Shown piece after piece: positions 4,207 through 60,413 of a stretch of DNA of 64,000 nt. Position 1 is the stretch's first letter. Each line of letters starts with the position of its first letter. The translations under genes and the position numbers were made by a program. Source of the DNA: Minisyncoccota bacterium (GTDB lineage Bacteria > Patescibacteriota > Minisyncoccia > Minisyncoccales > JAQTVQ01); assembly GCA_041657385.1 (NCBI GenBank), contig JBBABZ010000001.1, positions 15,313-79,312 on the forward strand. The letters run 5' to 3'. Under the pieces are notes generated by a model that saw nothing but the letters and a program-made list of their open reading frames with translations, had not been told where the DNA came from and made no database searches.

Positions 4207-4340
4207 AAGCGTAAAGTGCAAAGCGAAAAGCTTAAAGCAGCGAACGATCGTAGGACGAAAAGCGTTTGCAAACGCTTTTCGTCCTTGTTTTTAGCTTTAC
4301 GCTGTTATTTTACGCTTTTCGCTTTACACTTTACGCTTCT
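4207..4340. repeat. Heptamer-hairpin element, family A, copy A2, with a nested perfect 32-bp palindrome
   Basis: The arms are AAGCGTAAAGTGCAAAGCGAAAAGCTTAAAG and TTTTTAGCTTTACGCTGTTATTTTACGCTTTTCGCTTTACACTTTACGCTT. The centre, GGACGAAAAGCGTTTGCAAACGCTTTTCGTCC (4253-4284), is a perfect palindrome. Confidence 0.8.
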
Positions 4341-4402
4341 TGGTTTCACAAATTCCGAAAAATTTGCTAAGCTTTTAAGCGTCCTAAGAATAGAGACGTC
4401 AA

Positions 4403-4473
4403 CGGGGTGTAGTATACCGGCAGTACGTGCCCTTCGGGAGGGTAAAGACTGGGTTCAATTCCCAGCACCCCGA
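4403..4473 (+). tRNA. tRNA-Pro (anticodon CGG), CCA not encoded
   Basis: Hand-folded cloverleaf. Acceptor CGGGGTG/CACCCCG, D stem GTAT/GTAC, anticodon stem TGCCC/GGGTA with loop TTCGGGA, and T arm CTGGG-TTCAATT-CCCAG. The discriminator is A, followed by CTG. Confidence 0.85.
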
Positions 4474-4497
4474 CTGCTTAAATTAAAGTCCTTATCA

Positions 4498-4959
4498 ATG
4501 GAAACCAAGCTAGCCATTTTTGATTTCTCCGGCACTTTGGCTTACGGCAAGATAAGCGGCCAAAAACTTCTTGAAGACATGAGCAACTTAAGCTTCGAGC
4601 TTTTTGGCGACGCCCAAAAAGCTTTTGCTTTGCCTGTCCAAAAAGCGATTTTAACAGCCGCCGATCATTTTTTATTAAAAGGCTGCGACATTCCCAAAGA
4701 TATTAAAATTTTTACGCCTCTGGAAACAAAATATCTCAAGCCCGATCCCAGGGCTTTTCTTTTTGTGCTCGAACAGCTAGGCGTTAGCCCTCAACAAGCT
4801 GCGATGATAGGGGACGAAGTCGAAAGGGATCTGATCCCGGCCGTCGGCCTCGGGATGAAAGCCTTTTTGATTAACAGGGAAAACAAAGATATAAGCGTTT
4901 TGCCGAACGGCATCATAAGAATAAATTCTTTGAAAAAACTGGGAGAATACATCCGTTGA
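4498..4959 (+). CDS. Small HAD-superfamily hydrolase-like protein
   Basis: The track ORF 4216..4959 begins inside repeat A2 and runs through tRNA-Pro. The internal Met at 4498 gives METKLAIFDFSGTLAY (a HAD motif I-like sequence, with Ser in place of the second Asp) and a C-terminal IGDEVERDL. Confidence 0.6.
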   Translation: METKLAIFDFSGTLAYGKISGQKLLEDMSNLSFELFGDAQKAFALPVQKAILTAADHFLLKGCDIPKDIKIFTPLETKYLKPDPRAFLFVLEQLGVSPQQAAMIGDEVERDLIPAVGLGMKAFLINRENKDISVLPNGIIRINSLKKLGEYIR

Positions 4960-5240: not shown

Positions 5241-5388
5241 CCGGCATTAATTGCTTGCAACCCCGTTTTTTTTACCAAAATAATTGCCAGCCCTTTTTAA
5301 ACCAAGATTTTTTTGATAAACTAAATAAGATTTCAACGTTGCACTTTAGTTTCAAAAAAAAGAGTAAAGGATGGCATCGCCACGCTGA

Positions 5389-5477
5389 GAGCGAAGGAGG
5401 GCTTTGCCTCGCCGTAGCTCTAGCAAGAGCGAAGGAGGGCTTTGCCTCGCCGTAGCTCTAGCAAGAGCGAAGGAGGG
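5389..5477 (+). repeat. 38-bp tandem repeat (2.3 copies) running into the 5' end of tRNA-Ala
   Basis: The unit GAGCGAAGGAGGGCTTTGCCTCGCCGTAGCTCTAGCAA starts at 5389, 5427 and 5465. The third copy diverges exactly where tRNA-Ala begins. Confidence 0.85.
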
Positions 5478-5549
5478 GCCTGTAGTACAGTGGTAACACG
5501 CTGCATTCGCATTGCAGAGACGGGAGTCCGATTCTCCCCAGGTCCACCA
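5476..5549 (+). tRNA. tRNA-Ala (anticodon CGC), CCA encoded
   Basis: Acceptor GGGCCTG/CAGGTCC with the G3:U70 alanine identity pair. The anticodon stem is CTGCA/TGCAG with loop TTCGCAT, and the T arm is GGGAG-TCCGATT-CTCCC, followed by ACCA. The D stem is weak (2 Watson-Crick pairs). Confidence 0.8.
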
Positions 5550-5551
5550 CA

Positions 5552-5662
5552 GCTGGAATTTGGAAGCTGGAATTTGGAATCTAGAATCTAGAATTTAGAA
5601 TTCGGATTCCACATTCCATATTCTAAATTCTAAATTCCAGTTTTGAATTCCAGTCTTGAATT
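5552..5662. repeat. Heptamer-hairpin element, family B (GAAT units), copy B1
   Basis: Reads CTGGAATTTGGAAGCTGGAATTTGGAATCTAGAATCTAGAATTTAGAATTCGGATTCC | ACATTCCATATTCTAAATTCTAAATTCCAGTTTTGAATTCCAGTCTTGAA. Positions 5565-5659 look identical to 6387-6481. Confidence 0.85.
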
Positions 5663-5696
5663 GGTTTTTATAAGGCCAGCTAAAAGTTAGGAGGCT

Positions 5697-6413
5697 ATGA
5701 AAACAAAATTTCTTATTGCCGCGATAATCTTAACGGCCGCCGGGGCGGTATTTTTTCTTTGGTTGGGAAAACCAGATTCTCCGCTGGCCGAGCGAATTGC
5801 GCCGGTCTGGCAGACTCTGGAACAAGGAACGGGAACAATAATAGGGGAGGATATCAAATATTCTCCAAGCCACCCGCTGGTCGAGGCGGCGAAAAAACAG
5901 ATCGGAGTTGTTACGAAATATGACACCAGCTACTATCCGGACGGATATCCGCCAACAGACCGCGGAGCGTGCACTGATGTTATAGCACGGGCTCTAAAAA
6001 CCAACGGCTATGATCTGAAAGAAAAGATCGACGCGGATATGGCAGAATATCCGGACAAATATCCGAACGCATCGGATCCGAATATCAATTTCCGTCGGGT
6101 AACGAATGTAAAAATATTTTTAGATAACCACGCGCAAAAGTTATCTACCTGCATCACATCCGAATGTTTTGCGCAAGGTCTTTGGCAAGCAGGAGACATA
6201 GTAACCTTTGACCAAATTCCGGAAAGCTTATGGCACATTGCCATTGTTTCCAATAAAACGAAAAAAAATAACAACCTCGGAGGAGCAATGGTCCCTTTTT
6301 TGGTGCATAACCACGGAGGAGGCACGGTTGAAGACAATATGCTGTTAACTTGGCCCACGCCCATCACCGGCCATTACCGGACCTCAAGCTGGAATTTGGA
6401 ATCTAGAATCTAG
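5697..6413 (+). CDS. DUF1287 domain protein with N-terminal signal/anchor
   Basis: 238 aa with an AGGAGG SD. It reads YDTSYYPDGYPPTDRGACTDVIARALKTNGYDLKEKIDADM...NINFRRVTNV, which matches my recollection of the DUF1287 family. The last codons (WNLESRI*) are encoded by repeat B2. Confidence 0.7.
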   Translation: MKTKFLIAAIILTAAGAVFFLWLGKPDSPLAERIAPVWQTLEQGTGTIIGEDIKYSPSHPLVEAAKKQIGVVTKYDTSYYPDGYPPTDRGACTDVIARALKTNGYDLKEKIDADMAEYPDKYPNASDPNINFRRVTNVKIFLDNHAQKLSTCITSECFAQGLWQAGDIVTFDQIPESLWHIAIVSNKTKKNNNLGGAMVPFLVHNHGGGTVEDNMLLTWPTPITGHYRTSSWNLESRI

Positions 6414-6487
6414 AATTTAGAATTCGGATTCCACATTCCATATTCTAAATTCTAAATTCCAGTTTTGAATTCCAGTCTTGATTCCAG
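6387..6487. repeat. Heptamer-hairpin element, family B, copy B2
   Basis: 95 bp apparently identical to B1. It overlaps the 3' end and stop codon of the DUF1287 gene. Confidence 0.85.
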
Positions 6488-6515
6488 AAATAACGGCGAG
6501 AATAAATAACTAAAA

Positions 6516-6597
6516 ACGCAAAGCAACGGCGCCTGCCTATCAACAGACAGGTAAAGTTTAAAATATCATTCGTTATTTTGCGCTTTACACTTTTTAA
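6516..6597. repeat. Heptamer-hairpin element, family A, degenerate copy A3
   Basis: Reads CGCAAAGCAACGGCGCCTGCCTATCAACAGACAGGTAAAGTTTAAAATATCATTCGTTATTTTGCGCTTTACAC. It includes a decayed version of the GC palindrome and the family core. Confidence 0.65.
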
Positions 6598-6601
6598 CTC
6601 T

Positions 6602-8042: not shown

Positions 8043-10559
8043 ATGCTTGATCTTAAAAATTCGCGGATCTCAAAAGCGATCTTCATTGAAAAATATTTCT
8101 TTCCTGGAGCGCTTGGCCCTCTAAAGACTCTTTTTGAGTTAATCTTTATATTGTTTTCAGCCTCCTACCTTAGCTATTCTTTTCTAGGTCCCATTCCATT
8201 TTCAAAAGAATCCATCTTGGGGGCCGCCTGGATATCGTTCTCTTTATGGGGATTCCTTTGGCTTTTTCTAAGCTTCTTCAGCCAAAAACTGAAAGAGCCT
8301 GCGATAAAAGAATCCGATAACTTGGCTGATTTTTTAGATCTGAACTCGGCCAAAGCCGTGACAAAAGCCATCCATTCTAAAAAATATTCTTTCAGCCTGT
8401 CTCTCTTTCTAATATTGGCGGAAATGCCCGAATTCAAACCGGCTTTTTCAAGACTTTTATTGTCTCGGGAAAAAATTTGCAAGTCTGCCCAAGAAATATG
8501 GGGAAAGGGGGAGGCTGGCGAAGGCAACCGGCTCGAAGAAGCGGAACAGGTTGTTATGTCCGCGCTTAAAATGGCGGCTTCGGAAAATTTGGAAAGAATT
8601 CCTGCTTCCCGCTTGCTGTTCGCCGTTATAGAAAGCCACCCCTTAGCCAAAAAAACTTTGTTTTCGCTCGGCATTTCTAAAAACGATATCGTGGAAACGG
8701 TCCTATGGCAAGAAAAAGCTTTGAACTCCCGAAAGATCGCAAAAAAATTCTGGCTGAAAAAAAATCTCTTGAAAGAAGACAGCATCGGCAGGCACTGGGC
8801 GGCCGGGCATACCTACTTCCTTAATCTTTACTCGCGCGATCTTGCAAATTTCAGAAAGACGCTTCCTTCTCTTGGAGTCATTCTGCATGAAAAACAAATA
8901 AAACAGCTGGAAGACGCTTTAATAGGCTCCAGCGGCGCTACTTCCGCCTTGCTGGTCGGAGAGCCAGGCGTTGGAAGAAAGATGATCTTATCCAATCTGG
9001 CAAATAAAATTTCAGAAGGGCGCAGCTACCGTCCGCTTAATTTCAACAGAATGGTCGAGATCAATATGCCTTCTTTGATAACCGCTTCCCAGAGCATTGA
9101 AGAACTCGAGGTCATTTTGAAATCAATATTCAACGAAGCGATGCGGGCTGGCAACGTCATTCTCGTCATCCGCGAGATCCATAATTACATAGGATCTCAT
9201 TTCGGGGCCAGGGATGTGGCAAAGGTCAACATTTCCGGAATACTGGCGGAATATGCCTCTCTGCCAGGGTTCCGCCTTATCGGCATCGCGACCCCCGAAG
9301 GATTCAACCGCGTTTGGCACCAAACCCAAGAAGTCCTCTCTCATTTCGCGAAAATAGAAGTGCCGCCAGCCACCCCGAAAGAAACGCTGGCAGTTTTGGA
9401 AGAAACAGCTTTGGAAATAGAAAGGCAAACGAAATTTTTGATCACTTTTCCGGCCCTTGAAGAAATAATCGAGCTTGCCGACCGTTATATTTCCGATACT
9501 CCGTTCCCCAAAAAAGCGCTGAATATTTTGGACGGAGTAATTATTTATAAAATAAGGAACGGCAGAAGGGGATCGAACTTGATCTTAAAAAAAGAAGTTG
9601 ATGCCTTGGTCTCCGAAAAGATCGAGATACCGGTAGGAGAAGCGAGTCAAAGGGAAAAAAATGTCCTGCTGAACCTGGAAGACATCATCCACCAGCGGCT
9701 CGTGGGCCAGGAAGAAGCCGTTTCCGAGATCGCTAATGCCCTGCGCCGCGCAAGGGCTGATATTAAAAACGGCAAAAGAACCTTGGGCAGTTTTCTTTTT
9801 CTGGGCCCGACCGGCGTTGGCAAGACAGAAACCGCCAAATGCCTGGCCAGAGCTTATTTCGGCTCGGAAAAAAAAATGATACGGCTCGATATGTCCGAAT
9901 ATCAAGAGATCGGTTCGATCAAAAAATTGATCGGCGACGGAGAAAACCCCGGATACTTTACGACAATGGTCAGGGAAGACCCTTTCTCCCTGATCCTGCT
10001 TGATGAAATTGAAAAGGCCCATCCAAATATCTTAGATCTCTTCCTGCAGATCTTGGACGAAGGACGATCAACCGACGGATCGGGCCGGACCGTTGATTTC
10101 CGAAACACCATTATCATCGCGACCTCGAACGCGGGGGCGGAATTGGTGAGAAACGCCGTTAGAAAAGGTAAAAATCTATCCGAATACAAGCAGGAATTCA
10201 TCGATGAAGTCCTGAAAAAGGGGCTTTTCAGACCGGAATTCCTGAACAGGTTCGATGCGATCGTTCTGTTCCGAACCCTCACGAAAGAACACCTTCAAAA
10301 AATCGCCCGGCTTATGCTTGAAGAGATAAAAAACGGCCTCGACCAAAAGGGAATAGACCTCGCGATCACTTCGGAGCTGGTTGAAAAAATGGCCGAGATC
10401 GGATTTTATCCCGAATTCGGAGCAAGAGAAATGCGAAGGGTCATCCAAGAAAAAGTTGAGAATAGCATTGCCAAAGCAATGTTATCCGGAAACCTCAAAA
10501 CCAGCGACAGCATAAAGATAGACCCCGAAACATTCAAAATACTGGAATCTAGAATTTAG
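8043..10559 (+). CDS. Clp/Hsp100-family double AAA+ ATPase with N-terminal transmembrane segments
   Basis: 838 aa. D2 is canonical (LFLGPTGVGKTETAK, LILLDEIEKAH, the sensor region and ATSN). D1 reads GEPGVGRKM and VILVIREIH. The N-terminal ~80 aa are hydrophobic. The last codons (ILESRI*) come from repeat B3. Confidence 0.8.
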   Translation: MLDLKNSRISKAIFIEKYFFPGALGPLKTLFELIFILFSASYLSYSFLGPIPFSKESILGAAWISFSLWGFLWLFLSFFSQKLKEPAIKESDNLADFLDLNSAKAVTKAIHSKKYSFSLSLFLILAEMPEFKPAFSRLLLSREKICKSAQEIWGKGEAGEGNRLEEAEQVVMSALKMAASENLERIPASRLLFAVIESHPLAKKTLFSLGISKNDIVETVLWQEKALNSRKIAKKFWLKKNLLKEDSIGRHWAAGHTYFLNLYSRDLANFRKTLPSLGVILHEKQIKQLEDALIGSSGATSALLVGEPGVGRKMILSNLANKISEGRSYRPLNFNRMVEINMPSLITASQSIEELEVILKSIFNEAMRAGNVILVIREIHNYIGSHFGARDVAKVNISGILAEYASLPGFRLIGIATPEGFNRVWHQTQEVLSHFAKIEVPPATPKETLAVLEETALEIERQTKFLITFPALEEIIELADRYISDTPFPKKALNILDGVIIYKIRNGRRGSNLILKKEVDALVSEKIEIPVGEASQREKNVLLNLEDIIHQRLVGQEEAVSEIANALRRARADIKNGKRTLGSFLFLGPTGVGKTETAKCLARAYFGSEKKMIRLDMSEYQEIGSIKKLIGDGENPGYFTTMVREDPFSLILLDEIEKAHPNILDLFLQILDEGRSTDGSGRTVDFRNTIIIATSNAGAELVRNAVRKGKNLSEYKQEFIDEVLKKGLFRPEFLNRFDAIVLFRTLTKEHLQKIARLMLEEIKNGLDQKGIDLAITSELVEKMAEIGFYPEFGAREMRRVIQEKVENSIAKAMLSGNLKTSDSIKIDPETFKILESRI

Positions 10560-10675
10560 AATTTGGAATTTGGAATACGGATTCAAGACTGGAATTTGGA
10601 ATCTAGAATTTAGAATTTAGAATTCGGATTCCACATTCCATATTCTAAATTCCAGATTCCAAATTCCAGATTCCA
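10541..10675. repeat. Heptamer-hairpin element, family B, copy B3
   Basis: Reads CTGGAATCTAGAATTTAGAATTTGGAATTTGGAATACGGATTCAAGACTGGAATTTGGAATCTAGAATTTAGAATTTAGAATTCGGATTCCACATTCCATATTCTAAATTCCAGATTCCAAATTCCAGATTCCAG. Confidence 0.85.
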
Positions 10676-10680
10676 GCAGA

Positions 10681-11259
10681 TTATTCTATGCAGCAGTTGA
10701 CGGCTTTTTTGACCATCTCTTTCAGCTTGGCCATTAGGCCATTCTTCTGCGGATCTGGCTGTTTTTCAACAAGATCATCGCTGGCGGCAGAGGCTACAAC
10801 CTGCTCAACGGATTTATCATCCATCTTTTTCACATCGCCGATATTGATCAGCTTCATATTCAATCCCCAAAACAGGGAATAAAGGCTGAACGCTTTATTG
10901 AAAAGACCATAGGCGACATCTTTTTTACCCATCGAAAGCTGTTTGGTCCCAACTTCCATTAATCTCATTGAAGCGGCCAGCAAATGCTTGGAAATGCACC
11001 AAACTTCGCCTTCGTATTCTTTGATGATCTCTTTCAACAGCTCCTTTCTCATCTCCCTCACGATATTTATCAAGTCGTAATACTCGTTCTTGCCGGTTTT
11101 GGCGCCGGTAAAGAAGAAGTGCTCCTCGATACTGATCAAATTCATAATAGCCAAGCTTAAATCCTGGTCCGAAGACAGGTCCATCTTGTCTTTTTTCTTC
11201 ATTTCATCGACTTTGGCCACGAACTCATTAAGGTCTTTGATGGGGTTGTTTGTTTGCAT
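10681..11259 (-). CDS. Hypothetical protein (192 aa) ending in CCIE
   Basis: Long ORF with no recognisable family and a predicted helical composition. The ATG lies 10 nt from the last heptamer of repeat A4. Confidence 0.5.
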   Translation of the reverse strand: MQTNNPIKDLNEFVAKVDEMKKKDKMDLSSDQDLSLAIMNLISIEEHFFFTGAKTGKNEYYDLINIVREMRKELLKEIIKEYEGEVWCISKHLLAASMRLMEVGTKQLSMGKKDVAYGLFNKAFSLYSLFWGLNMKLINIGDVKKMDDKSVEQVVASAASDDLVEKQPDPQKNGLMAKLKEMVKKAVNCCIE

Positions 11260-11267
11260 AGCGATAA

Positions 11268-11398
11268 AAGCGTAAAGCTAAAAGCGTAAAGCTAAAAGCG
11301 AAAAGTGTAAAGCAGCGAACGGATATTTTAAACTTTACCTGCCTACCGGCAGGCAGGCGCTGTTGTTTTGCGCTTTTCGCTTTACACTTTACGCTTTA
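11268..11398. repeat. Heptamer-hairpin element, family A, copy A4, with GC palindrome
   Basis: The left arm is AAAGCGT AAAGCTA AAAGCGT AAAGCTA AAAGCGA AAAGTGT AAAGCAG (exact period 7). The core is CGAACGGATATTTTAA and the palindrome is CCTGCCTACCGGCAGGCAGG (11339-11358). The right arm is TTTTGCGCTTTTCGCTTTACACTTTACGCTTT. Confidence 0.9.
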
Positions 11399-11427
11399 TT
11401 TATTTTGTTAAAAAATATCTCCGATAT

Positions 11428-19116: not shown

Positions 19117-19222
19117 GCGAAAAGCTAAAAGCGAAAAGTGTAAAATAAACGAACGAATATTTTACGCTTTGCACTTTTGTTTTGCACTTTTCGCTTTACC
19201 TGCCTGCCGGCAGGCAGGCGCT
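19116..19222. repeat. Heptamer-hairpin element, family A, copy A5, with GC palindrome
   Basis: Reads AGCGAAAAGCTAAAAGCGAAAAGTGTAAAATAAACGAACGAATATTTTACGCTTTGCACTTTTGTTTTGCACTTTTCGCTTTA + CCTGCCTGCCGGCAGGCAGG (19199-19218). Confidence 0.85.
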
Positions 19223-20335: not shown

Positions 20336-20462
20336 GGTAAAGTGAAAAAGCGTAAAGTGCAAAGCGAAAAGCGCAAAACAACAGTGCAAAATTTAAAATA
20401 TTCGTTCGCTGTTTTTAGCTTTTCGCTGTTGCTTTACGCTTTGCGCTTTTAGCTTTACGCTT
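20336..20462. repeat. Heptamer-hairpin element, family A, copy A6
   Basis: Reads GGTAAAGTGAAAAAGCGTAAAGTGCAAAGCGAAAAGCGCAAAAC...TTTAAAATATTCGTTCGCTG...TTTTTAGCTTTTCGCTGTTGCTTTACGCTTTGCGCTTTTAGCTTTACGCTT. Confidence 0.9.
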
Positions 20463-20469
20463 AATCTCT

Positions 20470-21969
20470 ATGTTATATTCCAAAGACCAAATCAAAAATA
20501 TCATTCCCTATGATGACCCCTTCCTTTGGGTCGATGAGATCGAGAAGATCGAAGGCGATACAATTTTCGGTTCCAAGCAAACTTCTCCCCAAGATCCGTA
20601 TTTCAAGGGTCATTTCGTTGATTTTCCGATCATGCCGGGCGTTTTGGTCGTAGAAGGGCTTGCCCAAACTGGAACTCTTTTACTTCGCGAAAGGCTTGGC
20701 AGCAGCCACCAGCAAAAACATATCCTAGCCTATCAAGTAAGAAGCGCTATATTCTATTCGCCGATACTGCCCGGAGACAAGATCAAATACAAGGTCCGAT
20801 TGCTCGGTATATACGGCTCCAAGATCGCCAACTTCGTGGGAGAAGCTTATGTGGCAGATACTTTAAAATGCGAGCTTAGATTTTCAGCGGCCATTCTCGA
20901 CAAAAAAGAGATGCAGGAAAAATTCCTGGCCGACAGAACAAATTCCCAGCCGGAAAAGAAAAAACTGTTCGAGCTTCCAGCGCTAAAAGTAGGAAGATTT
21001 ACCGCAAAATTACCGATCATCCAAGGAGGAATGGCTGTCCGCGTTTCCCTTCATAAACTGGCTGGCAATGTCGCCAAAGAAGGCGGGGTAGGAATAATCG
21101 CCGTTTCGGGAATGAAGGATCCGCAGGAAGTAAAAGATGAGATCAGAAAAGCGCGCGCAATTGCCGGAGAAAACGGAGCGATCGGCATCAATATAATGGG
21201 AGTTGTCGGACAATTCAAACAGCTGGTAACCGCGGCGGTTGAAGAAAAAGTCGACCTGATAATCCAGGGAGCGGGATTCCGCACGGACATTTTCGAAATG
21301 ACCAGGGAAAGCTCCATCCCCGTTTTCGCCATGGCTTCATCAGCGAAAGTAGCTAAAAGGGCGGAAGAAGCTGGCGCATCGGCCGTTGTTGTTGAGGGTT
21401 GCGATGCCGGCGGCCACCTTGGATTCCCTCATGGACATCCTTTCCGTAAAACCATAGACATCATAAAGGAGGTCGTTAAAGAAGTGCGCATCCCCGTTAT
21501 CGCCGCTGGAGGCATTTTTGATGGAAAGGATATTGTAGAAATGTTAAGAGCCGGAGCGAAAGGCATTCAAATGGCGACCCGATTCGTTTCGACCGAAGAA
21601 TGCGATGCTGACATAAAATTCAAAGAAGCGCACATCAACGCAAAAAAAGAAGACATCGTTATCATCCATTCGCCAGTGGGCCTGCCCGGCCGAGCGATCA
21701 AAACCCCTTTTGTTGAAAAACTTTTGAAAGGAACTGCGCCCAAGCCCGACCCGATCGAGTGCCAAGGCTGTATAGGACCAGTTTGCGACAAAAGCTATTG
21801 CATCCTGAAAGTACTGGAAAACGCCCGGAAAGGAGACTTGGAAAACGGCCTGGTCTTTGCCGGAGCCAACGTTTGGAGAGTAAACAAAATGACAACGGTC
21901 AAAGCTTTAATAAAAGAACTGGTAGATGAAGCGAATGAAATACTGGCTAAGGAGCCGTTAATATCATAA
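20470..21969 (+). CDS. FabZ-like hot-dog dehydratase fused to a FabK/nitronate-monooxygenase-type enoyl reductase
   Basis: The N-terminus has YFKGHFVDFPIMPGVLVVEGLAQTG (the FabZ/FabA signature). From ~aa 175 it reads LPIIQGGMAVRVS...GVGIIA...VVVEGCDAGGHLG, a TIM-barrel FMN enoyl reductase. Confidence 0.8.
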   Translation: MLYSKDQIKNIIPYDDPFLWVDEIEKIEGDTIFGSKQTSPQDPYFKGHFVDFPIMPGVLVVEGLAQTGTLLLRERLGSSHQQKHILAYQVRSAIFYSPILPGDKIKYKVRLLGIYGSKIANFVGEAYVADTLKCELRFSAAILDKKEMQEKFLADRTNSQPEKKKLFELPALKVGRFTAKLPIIQGGMAVRVSLHKLAGNVAKEGGVGIIAVSGMKDPQEVKDEIRKARAIAGENGAIGINIMGVVGQFKQLVTAAVEEKVDLIIQGAGFRTDIFEMTRESSIPVFAMASSAKVAKRAEEAGASAVVVEGCDAGGHLGFPHGHPFRKTIDIIKEVVKEVRIPVIAAGGIFDGKDIVEMLRAGAKGIQMATRFVSTEECDADIKFKEAHINAKKEDIVIIHSPVGLPGRAIKTPFVEKLLKGTAPKPDPIECQGCIGPVCDKSYCILKVLENARKGDLENGLVFAGANVWRVNKMTTVKALIKELVDEANEILAKEPLIS

Positions 21970-21973
21970 ATAA

Positions 21974-22069
21974 AAAGCGTAAAGTGCAAAGCGAAAAGCG
22001 CAAAACAACAGTGTAAAGCTAAAAGCAACGAACGGATATTTTACACTTTTCGCTTTACGCTTTGCACTT
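21974..22069. repeat. Heptamer-hairpin element, family A, copy A7
   Basis: Reads AAAAGCGTAAAGTGCAAAGCGAAAAGCGCAAAACAACAGTGTAAAGCTAAAAGCAACGAACGGATATTTTACACTTTTCGCTTTACGCTTTGCACTT. Confidence 0.9.
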
Positions 22070-25185: not shown

Positions 25186-25621
25186 TAAATCAAATGTCAA
25201 ATCTCAAAAGTCAAAACCACAGCTTAAATCCTAAAAACGAACTAAAATTTCGCCGTTATCGCTTTTCCATTGATATTATCAATGCCAGCAAAGATTTCCC
25301 GAAAGAACGGACATTTGATATTATCGCCAAACAGTTGCTAAGAAGTTCTACCAGTATAGGCGCGAATATTGTTGAGGTAAAATCTTCAAGCTCCCGCAGG
25401 GATTTTATTAAATTTTATGAAATCGCTCTAAAATCCGCTAATGAAACAAAATATTGGCTTGGACTTTTAAGAGATGGTTTGAATTTTGACGGAGAAAAAA
25501 TAAATATATTCTTGGCTGAAGACGATGAGATATCAAAAATGATCGCCGCGAGCCTAATCACATTAAAAGGTAAAAGGCTTTAATCTATATGGTTTTGAGA
25601 TTTGACTTTTGAGTTTTGAAA
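25186..25621 (+). repeat. Heptamer-hairpin element family C (TCAAAA units), copy C1, carrying an ORF in its loop (IVS-like)
   Basis: The left arm is AAATCAAATGTCAAATCTCAAAAGTCAAAACCACAGC (25188-25224). The right arm is GGTTTTGAGATTTGACTTTTGAGTTTTGAAA (25591-25621). TCAAAACC pairs with GGTTTTGA, then arms match 5 of every 7 nt. Confidence 0.8.
25194..25583 (+). CDS. Four-helix-bundle protein (23S rRNA intervening-sequence protein family)
   Basis: 129 aa. It reads AKQLLRSSTSIGANIVEVKSSSSRRDFIKFYEIALKSANETKYWLGLL, matching the family signature (QL.RS..SI.ANI.EG...S..DF..F..IA.GS..E....L). The start codon and first ~14 codons lie in the repeat arm. Confidence 0.8.
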   Translation: MSNLKSQNHSLNPKNELKFRRYRFSIDIINASKDFPKERTFDIIAKQLLRSSTSIGANIVEVKSSSSRRDFIKFYEIALKSANETKYWLGLLRDGLNFDGEKINIFLAEDDEISKMIAASLITLKGKRL

Positions 25622-25628
25622 TAAGCTT

Positions 25629-26005: not shown

Positions 26006-26158
26006 GCGTAAATTTTCAATTTACAATTCTCAATTTTCCTGCCTACCGGCAGGCAGGCAATGAATGTTTCAATTTTCAAAAATTCCGTTATCGTCATTGA
26101 AGCATTGGAACATTGTAATTTCATTGGAAATTGAAAATTGTAAATTAAAAATTCACGC
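26006..26158. repeat. Heptamer-hairpin element family D (CAATTTT units), copy D1, with GC palindrome
   Basis: The left arm is GCGTAAATTTTCAATTTACAATTCTCAATTTTC. The palindrome is CCTGCCTACCGGCAGGCAGG (26038-26057). The right arm is GAAATTGAAAATTGTAAATTAAAAATTCACGC. Confidence 0.85.
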
Positions 26159-26695: not shown

Positions 26696-26824
26696 CTCAA
26701 AAATCAAATCTCAAAATTCAAAACCACAACTAAAAACCAAAAAGCTAAGCGTTATTTAATAAATTATAAAAAGTTAAAAAGTTTTAAATTATAGTTTTGA
26801 GCTTTGACTTTTAAGTTTTGAATT
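26696..26824. repeat. Heptamer-hairpin element family C, copy C2 (ORF-less)
   Basis: The left arm is CTCAAAAATCAAATCTCAAAATTCAAAACCACAAC and the right arm is AGTTTTGAGCTTTGACTTTTAAGTTTTGAATT. The 67-nt loop retains sequence resembling both ends of the C1 insert. Confidence 0.8.
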
Positions 26825-29254: not shown

Positions 29255-29935
29255 ATGCCCGCTTCTTATTTTTTAATATCCCTTTTCTCTTACCTGCTCG
29301 GTTCAATACCGGCCGCTATTTTAATTGGAAAACTTTTCACCAAGAAAAATTTTCAAGAAGAGGGAAGCGGCAATCTTGGCGCCACCAACGCTTTAAGAAT
29401 CGTCAGCAAAGAAAAAGGGAAATTCTGGGGAACCGCGGCCTTTCTTGCCGTTTTTCTTTTTGACGCCAGCAAAGCAGTGGCCGCTTGTTTGATCGCAACG
29501 AACTTTATTCCCGATCGGACCGCAGCTTTAACTCTGGCCGCCTTTTTTACCGTTCTTGGCCATAATTATTCATTGTTTTTAAAATTCCGGGGAGGGAGGG
29601 GAGCTGCTTCCTTGCTTGGCGTCCTCTTATTTTTCGATTGGCGCGTCTTTTTAGCTTGGGTTGGAACTTTTTTGGCCGTAGCCGTTATCTTTGAGGCTGT
29701 TGAAAGCAAAAAAATCGACAAAAAAATAGTGGCCAGAGCCGCTAACCGCCAAATTATCGGCCGTCTTGTTGGAGAGGTCTTAGCCCTTATTCCCATCTAC
29801 CTTCTCAATCAAACTCTTTTTTGGCCAACCCTTTTCGCTACGCCATTGATCCTTATCAAACATAAAGAAAGGGTGAAAAGACAGTTGCAAGAGATAGCTG
29901 AAAGCGTAAAGCTAAAAGCGCAAAGCGTAAAGTAA
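29255..29935 (+). CDS. plsY: Glycerol-3-phosphate acyltransferase PlsY (acyl-phosphate dependent)
   Basis: 226 aa. It reads YLLGSIP and GSGNLGATNALR. The last ~11 codons (ESVKLKAQSVK*) are encoded by repeat A8. Confidence 0.85.
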   Translation: MPASYFLISLFSYLLGSIPAAILIGKLFTKKNFQEEGSGNLGATNALRIVSKEKGKFWGTAAFLAVFLFDASKAVAACLIATNFIPDRTAALTLAAFFTVLGHNYSLFLKFRGGRGAASLLGVLLFFDWRVFLAWVGTFLAVAVIFEAVESKKIDKKIVARAANRQIIGRLVGEVLALIPIYLLNQTLFWPTLFATPLILIKHKERVKRQLQEIAESVKLKAQSVK

Positions 29936-30063
29936 CAGCGCCTGCCTGCCGGTAGGCAGGTAAAGCTAAAAGCAACGAACGGATATTTTTAGCTTTACGC
30001 TTTTGTTTTGCGCTTTTCGCTTTGCACTTTACGCTTCCTTGCTTTACGCTTCCTTACGCTTTT
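29900..30063. repeat. Heptamer-hairpin element, family A, copy A8, with GC palindrome
   Basis: Reads GAAAGCGTAAAGCTAAAAGCGCAAAGCGTAAAGTAACAGCG + CCTGCCTGCCGGTAGGCAGG (29941-29960) + TAAAGCTAAAAGCAACGAACGGATATTTTTAGCTTTACGCTTTTGTTTTGCGCTTTTCGCTTTGCACTTTACGCTTCCTTGCTTTACGCTT. Confidence 0.9.
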
Positions 30064-30263: not shown

Positions 30264-30671
30264 ATGGTCTTGACTAAAAACAAAAAAAATTTCATTATCT
30301 TAGCGGGAGCCCTGTCTCTGTTTTTGTTTTCCGGAGGTGAAGCCTTAGCCGCTGGGATTGTTCCTTGCGGAGGAACGGATTGCACTCTTTGCGATCTCTT
30401 TAAAATGGTTGAGAACATCGTGAACCAGATATTTTATTATCTGGTTCCATCAATCGCCGTTTTGCTTGTTGTTTATGGCGGATTTTTATTAATTACAGCC
30501 AGGGGAGATGGCAACTCTGAAAATGTGAAAAAAGCTAAAGCCGCTTTAACCGCTGTTGCCGTAGGGTTGCTTATAATTTACGGTTCATATATCGCTGTAA
30601 ATGAAATACTAAGAGCCGTGGGCGTAAAAACAGTCTGGCAGCAAGGGTGGTACCAAATTGATTGCCAGTAA
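30264..30671 (+). CDS. TrbC/VirB2-like T4SS pilin-domain protein (CPR type)
   Basis: 135 aa. A signal peptide is followed by GIVPCGGTDCTLCDLFKMVENIVNQIF, two TM helices flanking GDGNSENVKKAK, and a C-terminal Cys. The same layout recurs at 41.6 kb and 42.7 kb. Confidence 0.65.
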   Translation: MVLTKNKKNFIILAGALSLFLFSGGEALAAGIVPCGGTDCTLCDLFKMVENIVNQIFYYLVPSIAVLLVVYGGFLLITARGDGNSENVKKAKAALTAVAVGLLIIYGSYIAVNEILRAVGVKTVWQQGWYQIDCQ

Positions 30672-42663: not shown

Positions 42664-43650
42664 ATGAAAATAGCAAAAAAAATTATTTTTTCTTTAATGG
42701 TTTTGGGCCTACTGGCCCCTTTAAAAATTTTTGCGCTGGAAATAGATTGGCCGGCTTCTCCGGCTGGCACAAATCTGTCAGATCAAAGCACTCTCACAGA
42801 GCTGACCAAATACTCTTACGAATGGGCGATAACACTGGGCATCTTGGCTTTTTTTGTTTCAATAGTTATTAACGGAGTTAAGTATATGACCTCAACCGGT
42901 GATCCCGGCAAAACTGCGAATGTGCGCAAAAGAATACAATCCTCGGCCGCGGGACTGGGCTTACTTCTTGGCTCTTGGATCCTTTTAAACTTCTTGAACC
43001 CAAGATTAACCACTCTTTTTATTCCTGATCCAAACCAAGATTTAGCCACGCAAATGATTGAATATGAAGACTTCAGCAAACTTAAAGAAAACTCCTGCGA
43101 TCTTATAATTATTTATCCTAAAAAAAATTACGAAGAAGATAGTAACTTTGATCCACCAAAAGAAGTTCTTTATAACAGCGCAAAATCTCCCATAGATTTC
43201 AAAGTAAGTTTTTTTCCTCATTCTTTAAAAGTGTTGAAACAAATTAAAGGAGACGAACAATTAGTCTTAATGGACCAAGCAAACAGGCTGATCAGGGAAG
43301 AAAATGAAAAAATCAGAAAAGCAAATGAAGAAATGGTAAGATCGGGAGTTCAGGGGCCACCACAAGTGGAAAAACCGGAAAAAACTTTAAACGAGGCCAT
43401 AAAAGAAAAATACGGTTCTGACCCTTTTCCTTATAGTGGGGGGCTTTTTGTTGATGCCCCTCCTGGCTGTGTTGCATACTTCTACAGAAAAGACCCTAAA
43501 TATTTGTCGACGAGCATCTTTGGAACAGAGGATGTTCTAGCTTTTCAAATGTATGGCAGTAATCCTGATTTTAATACTCTTTATTCTGAAAACGAACTGA
43601 ATCAGATTAAAAAATTCAGAGTGGTTATCCCTGGTACTGTGAGTGAGTAA
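42664..43650 (+). CDS. T4SS-pilin-like N-terminal domain protein with an extra C-terminal domain
   Basis: 328 aa. A signal is followed by LEIDWPASPAGTNL...YSYEWAITLGILAFFVSIVINGVKYMTSTGDPGKTANVRKRIQSSAAGLGLLLGSWILLNFL. This gives two TM helices flanking a G-D-P loop, as in TrbC/VirB2-like pilins. Confidence 0.55.
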   Translation: MKIAKKIIFSLMVLGLLAPLKIFALEIDWPASPAGTNLSDQSTLTELTKYSYEWAITLGILAFFVSIVINGVKYMTSTGDPGKTANVRKRIQSSAAGLGLLLGSWILLNFLNPRLTTLFIPDPNQDLATQMIEYEDFSKLKENSCDLIIIYPKKNYEEDSNFDPPKEVLYNSAKSPIDFKVSFFPHSLKVLKQIKGDEQLVLMDQANRLIREENEKIRKANEEMVRSGVQGPPQVEKPEKTLNEAIKEKYGSDPFPYSGGLFVDAPPGCVAYFYRKDPKYLSTSIFGTEDVLAFQMYGSNPDFNTLYSENELNQIKKFRVVIPGTVSE

Positions 43651-43694
43651 TTAATTAACTTCTTGCTTCTATTTTTTTTAGGACTAAAAATAAC

Positions 43695-45917
43695 ATGATC
43701 CCAAAAAAATATTATTATTTTCTCGCAATTTTCATCGCTTTTTTTGGCTTGTTTTTTGTTGTAAAAACAGCTTCCGCCGGCGGGATACCTTTTATTTCAG
43801 AGCTTCCCTCCAGTGAAGGATTTTTAAGCTCAATCGAAGAAATAGCCGGCCCCATCCTGCAAGAAGCAATAGGTCTTTTTACTGCGATCATCAAAGCCTT
43901 TGTAATGGTTTTTGTATCCGCCCATCTCTTGGATTGGGCGATGACCCAGCCCATAGGCCTTGATGATAAACTCGTGACAACAGGCTGGGCCTTTACTTTA
44001 GCTCTGACAAATTTGATCTTTATTTTTATCATCCTTTATATCGCCATAAAGCAGATCGTCAGCGACGAAGGAGATATGAACTCTATTAAAAAATACCTTC
44101 CCAGATTAATAACCACTATTCTACTGGTAAATTTTGGCGTGGTTTTTATAAAAATGGCGATCGATATCGCCTTTATTTTGCAAAGGAGCATGGTTCCCTC
44201 TGATTCAAGCCTGGCTTTTAACAGCCTATCCGGATTGGAACAACAGATTAGCGGGATTTTAATAAGTTATGGACTCTACTTTGGCGCAGGGATTCTTGCT
44301 TCTTTCCTGCCGTCAGCCGCAGCTGTCTGGCAAGGATTAGCCTGGCCGACATATATTTTAATGGCGCCGGCAAGGATCAGCGCCGAGATCCAAATTTATG
44401 TTTGCAACACTTTGGCAGGCATTTATTTTCTTTATGCCTTATATTTTATAATAAGGATCTATGTAATTAAAATTTTAACCATAATTTTCCCTTTAGCTTT
44501 TGCCTGTTACGCCATCCCAAGCGAAGGCGCCCAAAAATTATGGAAACAATGGTCTAACTTTTTTATCACTTGGGTCTTTTTCCCTATACCCTTGCTCTTT
44601 TTCCTGGTCCTCGGGCTTAAATTGCTTCAAGACATAATGCCGGCTGGAATGGCTGCAATGGCAACCCCCCTTGCTTTCTGGCAAATAGCTACAAATGGAA
44701 ATTTGCTCAGCCCAGCTGTAAACTACTATATCGCCCTTATCGCTTACCTTGCCACTTTAGCTTATCTGAAAGTTAAATTTTCGCCAAGCCTCGATATTGG
44801 AGGAATAAAGGGAGGGGCACTGATAGACAAGGGGAAAAACTTTGTTCTTAACAGGGCTAAACAATCCTTCGCCGGGGCCGCTGTCAACCAGCGGGCAAGA
44901 GAAAAAACCGTACAGGCAGAAGAAGCAAGCGGCAAAAAATCAGGATGGATGAAAAGAACGGGGATGATGGCCGGCTCTCTTGCTGCGGGAGTGGTAGAAA
45001 ATGAATTTAGAAGCTCCGGAACTACTTCCAACATAGAGCTTGCCAAGGCTATTAAAGAAAAAAAAGAAGAATACAAAAAACAATTCGGAGAAGATATGGA
45101 AAGCGCCTCAAAATTTTTCAACGACCCTTCGTCAGCTCCGAAGACAGATCTCGAAAAAAGAGCTTTTTCTTCATACCTTGTTGATAATGCCAAAAGCGGC
45201 GAAGACTTAAAAAAGGCTTTGGACGGCGGCGGATTTTTAAAGAGATCTTTTAAGATAGAAAATCTCAAAGAAAGAAAAGCCAGAGTAACGATGAAAGTGG
45301 AGGACCTGCTCAAGGCCTCGGACGAAAAAACCGCAGATGCCTTAAAAAGGAGTATGATCGGCGAAACAGTTGTTGAATCAAAATTGTGGAATTTGACCGG
45401 CGGCAGCAAAGATATCAAGTCAAAATTCACACTCGCTGAAGAAGAGGTTAAAAAGGTCGTTGGAGGAGCCAAAAGCGAGGAAGACATGAAGCAGTTTATC
45501 CCAGGCTTTGAAAAAGACCCAGCCGCTCTTGAAAAAATAATGGAATTTGACGTTGAACAGCTTACGGCGCTAGCGAAAACCCATCGCTCCGCGCTTAAAG
45601 AATATGTCAAAAAGGTCAATGAAAAAGGCGTTGAAGATTTTGCAAAAGACCACGCCAGCCAGATGATGTTTATAGTTGGAACCGCCGGCCAAGCCGTCTT
45701 GCGGGATAAAGACAACAATGTCCTTGATAAAAAAGCGATTCAAGAAATGATAAGCGGAGTTAAAAAACACCAAGAGGACCCACCTATAGCTGGGTTTGCG
45801 CCAGAGAAAAAAGAGGCCTCGCCCGAACCTCCCAAAACGACAGAAGAAAAGGTAGAAGGGACGGGGGGCAGAAAATCTACAGCCGAAAGGATAAACGAAA
45901 AAAGAAATAAGGGATAA
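43695..45917 (+). CDS. Polytopic membrane protein, putative VirB6/TrbL/PrgH-like T4SS channel component with a long charged C-terminal tail
   Basis: 740 aa with about 8 hydrophobic helices in the first 370 aa, then a Lys/Glu-rich tail. The call rests on its position between the pilin-like genes and PrgI/VirB4, with no motif-level match. Confidence 0.4.
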   Translation: MIPKKYYYFLAIFIAFFGLFFVVKTASAGGIPFISELPSSEGFLSSIEEIAGPILQEAIGLFTAIIKAFVMVFVSAHLLDWAMTQPIGLDDKLVTTGWAFTLALTNLIFIFIILYIAIKQIVSDEGDMNSIKKYLPRLITTILLVNFGVVFIKMAIDIAFILQRSMVPSDSSLAFNSLSGLEQQISGILISYGLYFGAGILASFLPSAAAVWQGLAWPTYILMAPARISAEIQIYVCNTLAGIYFLYALYFIIRIYVIKILTIIFPLAFACYAIPSEGAQKLWKQWSNFFITWVFFPIPLLFFLVLGLKLLQDIMPAGMAAMATPLAFWQIATNGNLLSPAVNYYIALIAYLATLAYLKVKFSPSLDIGGIKGGALIDKGKNFVLNRAKQSFAGAAVNQRAREKTVQAEEASGKKSGWMKRTGMMAGSLAAGVVENEFRSSGTTSNIELAKAIKEKKEEYKKQFGEDMESASKFFNDPSSAPKTDLEKRAFSSYLVDNAKSGEDLKKALDGGGFLKRSFKIENLKERKARVTMKVEDLLKASDEKTADALKRSMIGETVVESKLWNLTGGSKDIKSKFTLAEEEVKKVVGGAKSEEDMKQFIPGFEKDPAALEKIMEFDVEQLTALAKTHRSALKEYVKKVNEKGVEDFAKDHASQMMFIVGTAGQAVLRDKDNNVLDKKAIQEMISGVKKHQEDPPIAGFAPEKKEASPEPPKTTEEKVEGTGGRKSTAERINEKRNKG

Positions 45918-45930
45918 AAACGTCAAAACA

Positions 45931-45962
45931 AAAGAGGCCGATTAAATTGGCCTCTTTTTTGT
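45931..45962. terminator. Bidirectional rho-independent terminator between convergent genes
   Basis: AAAAGAGGCC-gattaaatt-GGCCTCTTTTTT, with an A-run and a T-run on either side. Confidence 0.75.
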
Positions 45963-45968
45963 TGTTCT

Positions 45969-47048
45969 TTAACCCTTTCTTTTGTCTGGCTTTTTCGTCA
46001 AGCTCTTAGCAATTTCGGGGAAATTAGATCCTATCCCGCGTATATGCTCGCTCTTCAAATCCACCACTAAAGATGAGACTGTAAGCAACGCCGTCTGATA
46101 AATAGCCGCTCCTTCTTCCTTCCCAAACCTTTCTATCAACATCTTGATCATCGCCTCTTCTCCATCTTTATAGAGAAACGCTGCCGCCTTACTTCCCTCC
46201 GCTTTCAAGATAGCGGCTTTTTTTTCTCCTTCAGCCTTTTCGATTGCTGCCTCCTTTTCTTTGGTCGCGATATATTTCGCGGCAATGATCTTCTCCCAAT
46301 CTGGCGGAGGCATGATATTCTGCACTTGAATATCGGAAAGTTCTATTCCATAATCAATCAACAATTCCTCAATAATGGACCTTTCGTTGGAATATCCGGC
46401 TCCTTTTTTCTTTTCTTCACTGTTGCCTTTAGAATCTTCGGGCAGTCTTTTTTCTCTTAACATCTTCATAAAAGTAGCACCCAAATCTCCCTTTTCTTTG
46501 ACCATTGATTCTAGCGTCTTCTCTCCGATAACGTCTCGGATAACCGGTCCGGTTTTGTTAACCAACATTTCCATCCAATTTTCACAGTCGAAAAGCGCTT
46601 TCTTGGGGTTAACCACTTTGGCCGTATAAATTATCCCCACTGAAGCTAGCCTGACCTGGTTAGAATCTAATGGCGCAAGAATATCCGCATAATACAAGTC
46701 ACTTTTGAGGAAGACATAATCTATTATTCTCAAGTCATGGTGATCTTTTTCTCCTCTCTGATTGACCGACGTCCATTCCCAAGGATATTCATAAATATAA
46801 TCCAGCGGATTAATGCTGAAAAATCTTATTCCTCCTAAAAAATGGCCATGACTTTTCTCTCCAGGGGAGAGGGGAACTATATTCCATTCACGATCAAACT
46901 TATACCCGTCATAATTCAAAAGCCCTCCTCTGAATTCTCCATATCTTACAATAATTTTGCAATAACCATTCTCGATTTGCGTATAGAATCTCCGCTTTTT
47001 ATAATCAGCTATTTTTTCCTTTGACTTTAGTGTTGCTTCTCCTTCCAT
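45969..47048 (-). CDS. SPFH/band-7 (prohibitin/flotillin-like) domain protein
   Basis: 359 aa. The C-terminal region (IQVQNIMPPPDWEKIIAAKYIATKEKEAAIEKAEGEKKAAILKAEGSKAAA) is typical of SPFH proteins. Confidence 0.6.
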   Translation of the reverse strand: MEGEATLKSKEKIADYKKRRFYTQIENGYCKIIVRYGEFRGGLLNYDGYKFDREWNIVPLSPGEKSHGHFLGGIRFFSINPLDYIYEYPWEWTSVNQRGEKDHHDLRIIDYVFLKSDLYYADILAPLDSNQVRLASVGIIYTAKVVNPKKALFDCENWMEMLVNKTGPVIRDVIGEKTLESMVKEKGDLGATFMKMLREKRLPEDSKGNSEEKKKGAGYSNERSIIEELLIDYGIELSDIQVQNIMPPPDWEKIIAAKYIATKEKEAAIEKAEGEKKAAILKAEGSKAAAFLYKDGEEAMIKMLIERFGKEEGAAIYQTALLTVSSLVVDLKSEHIRGIGSNFPEIAKSLTKKPDKRKG

Positions 47049-47320
47049 ATTTCTTTCTTTAAAAGATCTTCTTCAGCCTTGGCGTTACCCTTGGCTGAAA
47101 AGATAACCCTTTAAAGGTTACGTTTATTATTTCAGCCTTGGTTTAAGCCAAGTTTAGATGATTATTTTATACAATATTTTAGTTATTCTGTCAAATATTT
47201 TTATAAACTAAAAACCCTCCAAAAAACACGCTCAACTCTGCGAGTAAGTTGAAATTTTTACAGGATAGGGGAAAAATCTGCTTTTGACAAAAGCGGATTT
47301 ATGTTAAAATATTTTTAAGC

Positions 47321-47821
47321 ATGCAAAAAGAAATTTCAGAACAACAATTTTGGGAGGCATACGATGCTATCCCCGCTGAATTGCAGGATGCGATTTTTTC
47401 CGAAAAAACGGCAAAAGCCATTTTCAATGCTTGTGTCGAAAATGGCATAGAAGATGAAAGAATATCTAAGGTCGCTAAAAACGTCGGAGATGTCCTTTTG
47501 GGCCTTCTTTCTCCTGAACAATTACAGCCAACGCTGGAACTTGATCTAAATTTAGAGTCGCAAGCATCGGAAAATATCTGCCAAGCGATATATAATACTA
47601 TCTTTGAACCAGTCCGCTCGCAGCTCGCAGAGCTTTATCTCCATAATAATGAAGAGAGAAAAGAAACAAAAATAAAAATAGAGGTCGAACCAAAAATAGA
47701 GAAACCTTCATCTGAAGATGTACTAGGTAACAATCCTAAAAAAGAAGACAAAAAACCTATCCCTGCCAAATCGGCGACAGAAAAGTCTTCTTCTGTTTCC
47801 TACCGCGAGCCAATCGGCTAA
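47321..47821 (+). CDS. Hypothetical protein
   Basis: 166-aa ORF with an acidic N-terminal half and a Lys-rich C-terminal tail. No family was recognised. Confidence 0.45.
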   Translation: MQKEISEQQFWEAYDAIPAELQDAIFSEKTAKAIFNACVENGIEDERISKVAKNVGDVLLGLLSPEQLQPTLELDLNLESQASENICQAIYNTIFEPVRSQLAELYLHNNEERKETKIKIEVEPKIEKPSSEDVLGNNPKKEDKKPIPAKSATEKSSSVSYREPIG

Positions 47822-47835
47822 CCTCAAATCAAACT

Positions 47836-48252: not shown

Positions 48253-48259
48253 ATTTATT

Positions 48260-48901: not shown

Positions 48902-48924
48902 TATATTAAAAAGCCTTAATCTCA

Positions 48925-60400: not shown

Positions 60401-60413
60401 AAGTTCTTCGCCT

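Follow-up and report, generated by a model that had tools for sequence, protein, structure and literature searches.

Genes and repeats at the locus

The 64-kb stretch of DNA analysed here (the window) belongs to a metagenome-assembled genome (MAG) of an uncultured member of Candidatus Paceibacterota in the Candidate Phyla Radiation (CPR), and all results on this genome refer to the window. It carries a gene for a DUF1287 protein that is enclosed by two copies (B1 and B2) of a palindromic repeat made of degenerate heptamers (family B), and a third copy (B3) lies at the 3' end of a gene for a Clp-like ATPase. The features around the DUF1287 gene are as follows.

5476..5549, plus strand: tRNA-Ala(CGC) (ARAGORN and Rfam tRNA), adjoining the B1 region and forming the left edge of a variable slot
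5550..5563, plus strand: extra 14-nt (two-heptamer) tandem duplication CAGCTGGAATTTGG preceding B1 (sequence and Tandem Repeats Finder, TRF)
5564..5659, plus strand: B1, a 96-nt heptamer-array hairpin followed by UUGGUUUUU (fold of -44.9 kcal/mol, z of -6.4)
5660..5696, plus strand: leader of the DUF1287 gene with an AGGAGG ribosome-binding site (from the sequence)
5697..6413, plus strand: DUF1287 gene, 238 aa, ending in TSSWNLESRI* (Pfam PF06940, 9e-42)
6384..6481, plus strand: B2, a complete copy with TCAAG...CTTGA termini (fold of -43.0 kcal/mol, z of -7.8)
6488..6600, plus strand: small A-family element, located between B2 and the next gene, in which short heptamer arms enclose CCTGCCTATCAACAGACAGG

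A repeat search found positions 5564-5659 and 6386-6481 to be identical at 96 of 96 bases, as direct repeats on either side of the DUF1287 gene with a start-to-start spacing of 822 nt. A preliminary description of this DNA had reported identical 95-bp copies (5565-5659 and 6387-6481); the identity was borne out and extended by one base. B3 is ~95% identical to B1/B2 across 73-79 nt, with a homology that extends as far as 6384 in B2 and no farther than 5564 in B1; thus, it is B2 that has the complete termini. All three copies lie inside 5.1 kb.

Each copy is an imperfect palindrome with a stem of ~40 bp that is equally stable on the opposite strand. The inverted arms are convergent, separated by 4-9 nt, and composed of degenerate arrays of GGAATTT, GGAATCT, AGAATCT, and AGAATTT, for which TRF reported periods of 7, 14, and 21 nt at 5554-5639, 6392-6461, and 10545-10676 and a period of 14 nt (2.6 copies) at 5551-5587. 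Fold z-scores ranged from -6 to -10. B3, the left arm of which is duplicated (47-nt period, 1.9 copies by TRF), folded at -63.3 kcal/mol on the plus strand and -61.9 kcal/mol on the minus strand (z of about -10; -10.4). The arrays also create sigma-70-like TTGGAA-N16-TAGAAT matches (9 of 12 positions) at 5560-5601, 6396-6423, and 10596-10623, which face the downstream gene and are consensus matches only.

The identity of B1 and B2 is an outlier in the window, in which the runner-up element pair reached 95% across 79 nt (pairwise alignment). At the ~5% divergence of the family, a 96/96 match would have a probability of ~0.7% by our calculation. No other pair of elements comes near this identity, so that it is fair to infer that a duplication or conversion took place recently, as had been among the earlier suggestions; B1 and B2 would then go back to a single, recent, and local event of copying or conversion.

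The exact DUF1287 protein was present on four contigs, and the region from B1 to B2 was compared base by base in three assemblies (L001, L002, and L003), all of which had the order B1-DUF1287-B2. L001 and L003 were 100% identical to the window, and L002 differed by one single-nucleotide polymorphism and one 38-nt tandem unit. An assembly artefact was ruled out, as the three assemblies agreed and one of them was built with k141, which exceeds the 96-nt repeat. The exact B core gave no match in the metagenomic contig collection that we searched, and the collection therefore does not contain this genome.

Gene 3' ends at B and A elements

The B3 copy lies between two convergent genes.

8043..10559, plus strand: Clp/ClpC-like AAA+ ATPase gene, 838 aa (Pfam AAA_2 and ClpB_D2-small, aa 746-826)
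10542..10676, strand not assigned: B3, a 135-nt copy with a duplicated left arm
10681..11259, minus strand: convergent gene of 192 aa, the stop of which lies 4 nt past B3

The Clp-like protein ends in FKILESRI*, and codons 834-838 (LESRI) together with the TAG lie inside B3 (CTG GAA TCT AGA ATT TAG). Eight orthologues (78-93% identity) end in IDPETF[KE]I[IV]K plus 2-7 residues, for example ETFKIIKIGKDT, and LESRI was found in none of the eight. In the window, ETFKI is followed directly by LESRI, and the DNA diverges at the CTGG at 10542, the first base of B3. The native tail was found nowhere downstream in the window, the C-terminus of the 192-aa protein (VNCCIE*) is intact, and B3 spans the gap between the convergent genes from stop to stop. 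As the tail is not found downstream and B3 fills the gap, the tail and the whole spacer (~165 nt) were replaced, not interrupted.

At the same site, relatives have a palindrome composed of an A-tract, a GC stem, and a U-tract (-19.5 kcal/mol and z of -7.8 in L005; -16.7 kcal/mol and z of -5.6 in L044), which is in its predicted fold the architecture of a bidirectional intrinsic terminator. Folding was relied on for this assignment, as a simple terminator scanner skipped these palindromes, the A and U tracts of which pair. Judged from the orthologue alignments, which show the exchange at base resolution, B3 replaced a 7-residue Clp tail and a putative bidirectional terminator kept by the relatives. 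Orthologues of the 192-aa gene were 91-97% identical in four of the five relatives (L005, L041, L042, and L044). In some relatives, a block of ~6 kb (a TrwB/DUF87-like ATPase gene and four open reading frames, ORFs) lies between the Clp gene and the 192-aa gene (L042, 12592-18698; L044, 5472-10907; L004, from 8943), and the window, L005, and L041 lack this block; the B3 site is therefore a recurrent indel junction. The L002 contig ends shortly past the Clp gene.

A second replacement was seen at plsY, with an element of family A.

29255..29935, plus strand: PlsY gene, 226 aa (PF02660, aa 12-209)
29897..30055, strand not assigned: A-family hairpin of AAAGCGT/AAAGCTA units with the GC-rich apex CCTGCCTGCCGGTAGGCAGG

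The last 11 residues of PlsY (ESVKLKAQSVK) and the TAA come from the left arm of the A element, the array of which starts at ~29897. Orthologues (74-83% identity) end in QL[RK]EI[AK] plus 2-3 residues, and none of them has KLKAQSVK; in the window, QLQEIA is followed by ESVKLKAQSVK, read from GAAAGCG TAAAGCT AAAAGCG and onward. By the same kind of alignment, the native PlsY end is shown to have been replaced by the A-family element. The gene for the CCA-adding enzyme kept its own TAG, and an A-family element merely abuts it.

The preliminary description had claimed that the repeats replaced native 3' ends and now supply the stop codons. Alignment of the Clp-like and PlsY orthologues confirmed this, as their C-termini differ from those in the window from the start of the repeat onward and share neither LESRI nor KLKAQSVK. 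The DUF1287 gene also fits the claim. Codons 230-238 and the TAG lie inside B2 (TTG GAA TCT AGA ATC TAG at the end), residues 62-228 match positions 1-162 of the 163 of PF06940, and in an alignment of 39 homologues, conservation stops at GHYR (R228), with tails of 2 to ~17 variable residues beyond it. Family conservation and the Pfam match thus end before B2, which begins at codon 230; no orthologue exceeded 72% identity.

The TAG triplets of B2 lie at offsets 21, 28, and 35, in three consecutive heptamers, and since 7 is coprime to 3, every frame is stopped: all forward frames are closed within 21-35 nt, and the reverse strand of B is closed in all three frames too. LESRI* is encoded by (C/T)TG GAA TCT AGA ATY TAG, which is one of three phases, so that two ORFs entering in the same phase are a 1-in-3 event. 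Unrelated metagenomic ORFs that enter GGAATCT-type arrays end in WNLESRI*, RNLESRI*, and WNLESGI*. That B copies donate a common LESRI to two unrelated proteins, as had been pointed out, holds insofar as both ends lie inside a B element; read from the array, the shared peptide is no special coincidence, being one reading phase.

The slot downstream of tRNA-Ala

Homology between the window and the related locus L040 is lost at the CCA end of the tRNA gene and is back at the ATG of the next gene; the replaced segment is therefore 5550-6601 and does not run from B to B. L040 has the order HAD, tRNA-Ala, an unrelated 159-aa gene, a UPF0259-like gene, a 125-aa gene, and Clp. L044 has the same 159-aa gene as L040 (64% identity), and in L005, the slot holds scars of the tRNA end and another gene, of 282 aa. 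DUF1287 was absent from all seven related loci searched by tblastn, and no solitary B was present at this slot in any relative examined. Among DUF1287 homologues, no shared neighbourhood was found, the gene surroundings being unrelated. By this locus comparison, a gene replacement is shown to have occurred in the slot 3' of tRNA-Ala, and the DUF1287 gene appears as its lineage-specific occupant.

The perfect 96-bp direct repeats around one gene with its own ribosome-binding site had suggested a potentially excisable cassette, in which a circular form of B plus the gene would integrate and excise between B hairpins in the manner of attC sites. The different single genes held by the tRNA-Ala slot among relatives and the unrelated neighbourhoods of DUF1287 homologues would also suit such a cassette. 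The gene was kept, however, in all four carrying contigs (three of them compared base by base), with neither an empty B site nor a B-by-B deletion variant in any assembly, and B is missing, too, from the relatives without DUF1287. The tRNA CCA end and the next ATG delimit the non-homologous segment, other hairpins lie between housekeeping genes (fab, acc, and plsY), no integrase was found in the ORFs scanned, and B has no attC cores (RYYYAAC/GTTRRRY). A mobile single-gene cassette is accordingly very unlikely.

Integration targeted to the tRNA gene with att repeats was rejected in the window, where GGTCCACC has a single occurrence. In L005 (8336-8570), two more partial tRNA 3' ends (GATTCTCCCCAGGTCCACC and GGTCCACCA) follow tRNA-Ala with inserts of ~100 nt between them, and these copies look like scars of serial tRNA integrations. 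Directly 5' of tRNA-Ala in the window are 2.4 perfect 38-nt tandem copies of a dispersed motif (one copy fewer in L002) that consists of CTTTGCC(T/C)GCCGTAGC, a variable hairpin, and GCGAAGGNGGG. Members of this family occur in the window (5388-5477 and 60406-60440), L005 (7400-7460), L041 (1612-1665), L042 (18735-18775), and L044 (10965-11015), and the family had no match in Rfam. The small A element at 6488..6600 has an inverted match to 11322-11401 (80 nt at 75%).

Hairpin families in the window and in relatives

About 15 heptamer-array hairpins lie between 2.5 and 36 kb of the window and fall into at least four sequence families: A (AAAGCGT/AAAGTGC), B (GGAATTT/AGAATCT), C (TCAAATG/TCAAAAC), and D (ATTGAAA/ATTAAAA). 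All of them are at gene boundaries, and three overlap coding 3' ends. Several have the GC-rich apex CCTGCCTRCCGGCAGGCAGG; this palindrome was located at A and D apices at 11338-11357, 19199-19219, 26039-26058, 29943-29962, and 6524-6549, and also in relatives (e.g., L005 at ~7430). Such hairpins are also present in close relatives and were not seen at the loci examined from more distant CPR. The hairpin beside the 192-aa gene is of A type in the window and D-like in L041 and L042, and L044 and L005 have none.

The left arms of the A elements at 20345-20390 and 21972-22017 are 98% identical (46 nt) and enclose one gene, a FabA/NMO-domain gene (20470..21969), so that here, too, the copies that are most alike flank a single gene. 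In family C, hairpin arms at 25190-25241 and 25591-25622 enclose a gene for a 23S_rRNA_IVP protein (PF05635; 25194..25583), and an intact C hairpin without a gene lies at 26696-26821; the gene between the C arms resembles rRNA intervening sequences, which have an IVP ORF within a stem.

Traces of slippage were found as the 14-nt duplication (5550-5577), the 47-nt duplication of the B3 arm, and the 38-nt unit polymorphism in L002. Rfam 15 at the gathering score matched only four tRNAs in the whole window. Pfam scans, which covered ~50 of the ~63 window ORFs of at least 70 aa, revealed no transposase, integrase, REP-associated tyrosine transposase (RAYT), or Nop-domain protein. There was no target-site duplication at B1 (CCACCAC before and ATTGG after the element), B2 (GGACC and TTCCAG), or B3 (AAAATA and CAGATT). 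Transposition, the other route offered earlier for the origin of the identical copies, is not supported by these results.

These results bear on the possibility that B is a conventional miniature inverted-repeat transposable element (MITE), with a transposase encoded elsewhere acting in trans and B2 or B1 being a fresh transposition. A whole 96-nt unit was copied with sharp borders, the element is palindromic and multi-copy and, as in RUP or Correia elements, has stops in every frame, and an overlap with gene 3' ends is typical of MITEs. Besides the missing target-site duplications and the lack of a transposase among the window ORFs scanned, however, the three copies are restricted to 5.1 kb, the ~165 nt at the Clp gene were replaced and not inserted into, and the copies vary by whole heptamers or arm duplications in the manner of simple sequence repeats. 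We therefore regard a conventional MITE as unlikely.

The hairpins could also be mainly functional cis-elements (protein-binding arrays, portable terminator or promoter modules, or RNase III sites), the identity of which is maintained by selection or concerted evolution. GGAATYT-type hairpins recur at gene boundaries in unrelated contigs, even in those of 64-67% GC, at least one of which clusters with an Acidobacteriota protein, and the inverted GGGAATC pairs of Xanthomonas keep their position between species. The arrays create the TTGGAA-N16-TAGAAT promoter-like matches, and B3 occupies the site of the relatives' terminator. However, close relatives differ in family or have no element at the orthologous site, so that the site does not depend on a particular sequence. 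No protein emerged as a candidate for binding the arrays, the symmetric folding of both strands fits a palindrome at the DNA level as well as one in RNA, and the promoter and terminator matches are matches to consensus only. A mainly cis-acting function is accordingly an improbable explanation of the identity.

Proposed mechanism

The reading that we favour, and hold to be reasonably probable, places family B among at least four families (A-D) of intergenic palindromes built from heptamers, which in this Paceibacterota lineage change and spread without a dedicated transposase. Arrays would lengthen or shorten by slippage of 7 or 14 nt, and hairpin units would be copied or converted whole between nearby intergenic sites via recombination. 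New units would overwrite dispensable DNA between coding regions, namely native terminators and unconserved last codons. As the heptamers hold TAG or TAA and 7 is coprime to 3, all frames would be closed in ~35 nt, and an ORF that loses its stop would be rescued with a short array-encoded tail. From their position, the hairpins most likely now act as transcript-end hairpins (terminators or 3' stabilisers).

Several points weigh against this reading. The copying step is deduced from its products, and the copy may have been made from B1 to B2 or in reverse. The part of the genome examined is 64 kb, and further B copies or a transposase may lie elsewhere. The native stop of the DUF1287 gene could not be fixed from its closest non-self homologue (72% identity). 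A foreign origin of this gene by composition was rejected, as its GC content (0.47) and GC content at third codon positions (0.49) are typical of the genome, which leaves no compositional sign of a recent import. As for a role at transcript ends, UUGGUUUUU follows B1 but neither B2 nor B3, both of which are without a clean U-tract, the scanner called no terminator at B3, and the A element at 2526-2680 sits between divergent genes.

The window offers a base-precise and orthologue-controlled case in which repeats remodel protein C-termini and replace terminators, and this in a streamlined CPR genome with little DNA between its genes. Odd C-terminal peptides that recur, such as NLESRI and KLKAQSVK, are explained in this way; annotation pipelines will spread them as real protein. 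The elements also break assemblies (as in L002) and mark fast-evolving sites that are useful for strain typing.

Other genes of the window

The window contains dnaA and dnaN (52783-55566) and is therefore probably near the replication origin. Genes for a type IV secretion system-type pilin, a PrgI-like protein, and TraG/VirB4-like ATPase are also present (30264-30671; 42664-50694). A mechanically called ORF of 247 aa (4216-4959) over-extends a HAD hydrolase gene upstream, over tRNA-Pro (4403-4474) and into an A-family element; the true HAD gene is 4498..4959 (153 aa) according to the gene calls in L001 and L002.

Comparison with known repeat systems

Several palindromic systems resemble the B elements in part. 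Like repetitive extragenic palindromic (REP) sequences, bacterial interspersed mosaic elements, and their RAYTs, B elements are extragenic imperfect palindromes at gene ends with a proposed role in termination or mRNA stabilisation. REPs are 20-40 nt in length with GTAG or CGTC tags (PMC3733652), whereas B elements are 96-135 nt in length and lack those tags. With no REP terminal tetranucleotide in B and no RAYT (Y1 HUH) gene seen in the window, REP/RAYT was rejected on the motifs and the missing enzymes. Like integron attC sites, B is an imperfect palindromic hairpin at the 3' end of a single promoterless-looking gene, with the stop in or near the hairpin. Unlike integron cassettes, the 96-nt B contains neither RYYYAAC nor GTTRRRY, no IntI lies nearby, the flanks are housekeeping genes, and there is no empty or alternative array; integron/attC was rejected on the missing cores and the lack of an integrase Pfam match among the ORFs scanned.

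Arrays of tandem interspaced guide RNA (TIGR) are frequent in CPR and consist of tandem dual-spacer units of ~36 nt beside a Nop-domain Tas gene. A TIGR array (TIGR-Tas) was rejected here on the 7-nt period and the occurrence of the hairpins as single, dispersed units, and because the ORFs scanned gave no Nop-domain match. Rickettsia palindromic elements are, like B, palindromic repeats that add coding sequence to proteins with no relation to one another. They are inserted in frame within ORFs, and translation passes through them, whereas B stops translation within ~10 codons.

MITEs are known to overlap gene 3' ends in Coxiella (QMITE1/2; PMC5896051), and Correia, RUP, and RU-3 elements were reviewed by Delihas (2008; PMC2229807). 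They overlap the C-terminal 1-50 bp of functional genes with little extension or truncation, and 33 C-terminal residues of EnhC are supplied in this way (PMC5896051, PMC2229807). B shares with MITEs the short palindromic form, the stops in all frames, and the C-terminal overlap. Unlike MITEs, no terminal inverted repeats, target-site duplications, or parent insertion sequence (IS) element were found for B, which is internally periodic at 7 nt; a parent IS or transposase was sought in ~50 of the ~63 window ORFs.

In Xanthomonas, intergenic heptameric GGGAATC repeats (GGGGAYT in Nostoc) form 70-75 convergent inverted pairs per genome, for which polymerase slippage was the proposed cause (Rehm et al. 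2015, PMC4692102). The B elements share the intergenic tandem heptamers, often in inverted pairs able to form stem-loops, and the Xanthomonas unit, aligned in register, differs by one base from the GGAATCT of B. Its positions are kept, and its length and sequence vary between close relatives. Judged as arrays of the Xanthomonas type, the B elements have 7-nt tandem units in close convergent arrays and are mostly intergenic with variable sequence. They differ in that the B arms are degenerate heptamer mixtures, whereas the Xanthomonas arrays are near-perfect simple sequence repeats, and in that the whole B hairpin is copied as a unit (96/96 between B1 and B2; 95% to B3). In addition, the genome has more than one heptamer family, the families being unrelated and in some cases provided with a GC-rich apex hairpin. 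Neither terminator replacement nor an overlap with coding 3' ends was reported for Xanthomonas, where the focus was on G-quadruplexes (PMC4692102), and that focus does not apply to the AT-rich B unit. Literature searches found no paper describing this combination in a CPR genome and nothing relevant on GGAATTTGGAATTT-type arrays.

In a degenerate scan, GGAATYT arrays were present on at least 120 metagenomic contigs. An inverted partner lay within 150 nt in 27 of the 132 fetched loci, a total in which 12 viral contigs from the same pattern scan are counted, and many of the 27 are on contigs of 64-67% GC. A wider class may be indicated, but the scan sought the GGAATYT unit only, and the breadth of the hairpin class therefore rests on one unit. 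AT-rich GGAATYT hairpins were wedged between genes in L068, L112/L145, L116, L124, L133, L148, L150, and L158 (GC of 0.64-0.67), and a protein of L095 clustered with one from a MAG of Thermoanaerobaculia (Acidobacteriota). Hairpins of this kind occur in Patescibacteria, an Acidobacteriota-like contig, other contigs of 64-67% GC, and Xanthomonas. GGAAT-core hairpins (GGAATYT and the Xanthomonas GGGAATC) might conceivably be a self-propagating class that crosses phyla and spreads by a heptamer-specific mechanism or factor instead of independent slippage in each genome, which we consider a speculative and rather unlikely extension. If true, such hairpins would spread systematically through intergenic space at the expense of terminators and of the 3' ends of genes, and the class would merit a systematic survey.

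Set against these systems, the present case joins inverted heptamer arrays of the Xanthomonas type with a MITE-like donation of gene 3' ends in a CPR genome; it does not represent a new system but clearly exemplifies events of a kind already known.

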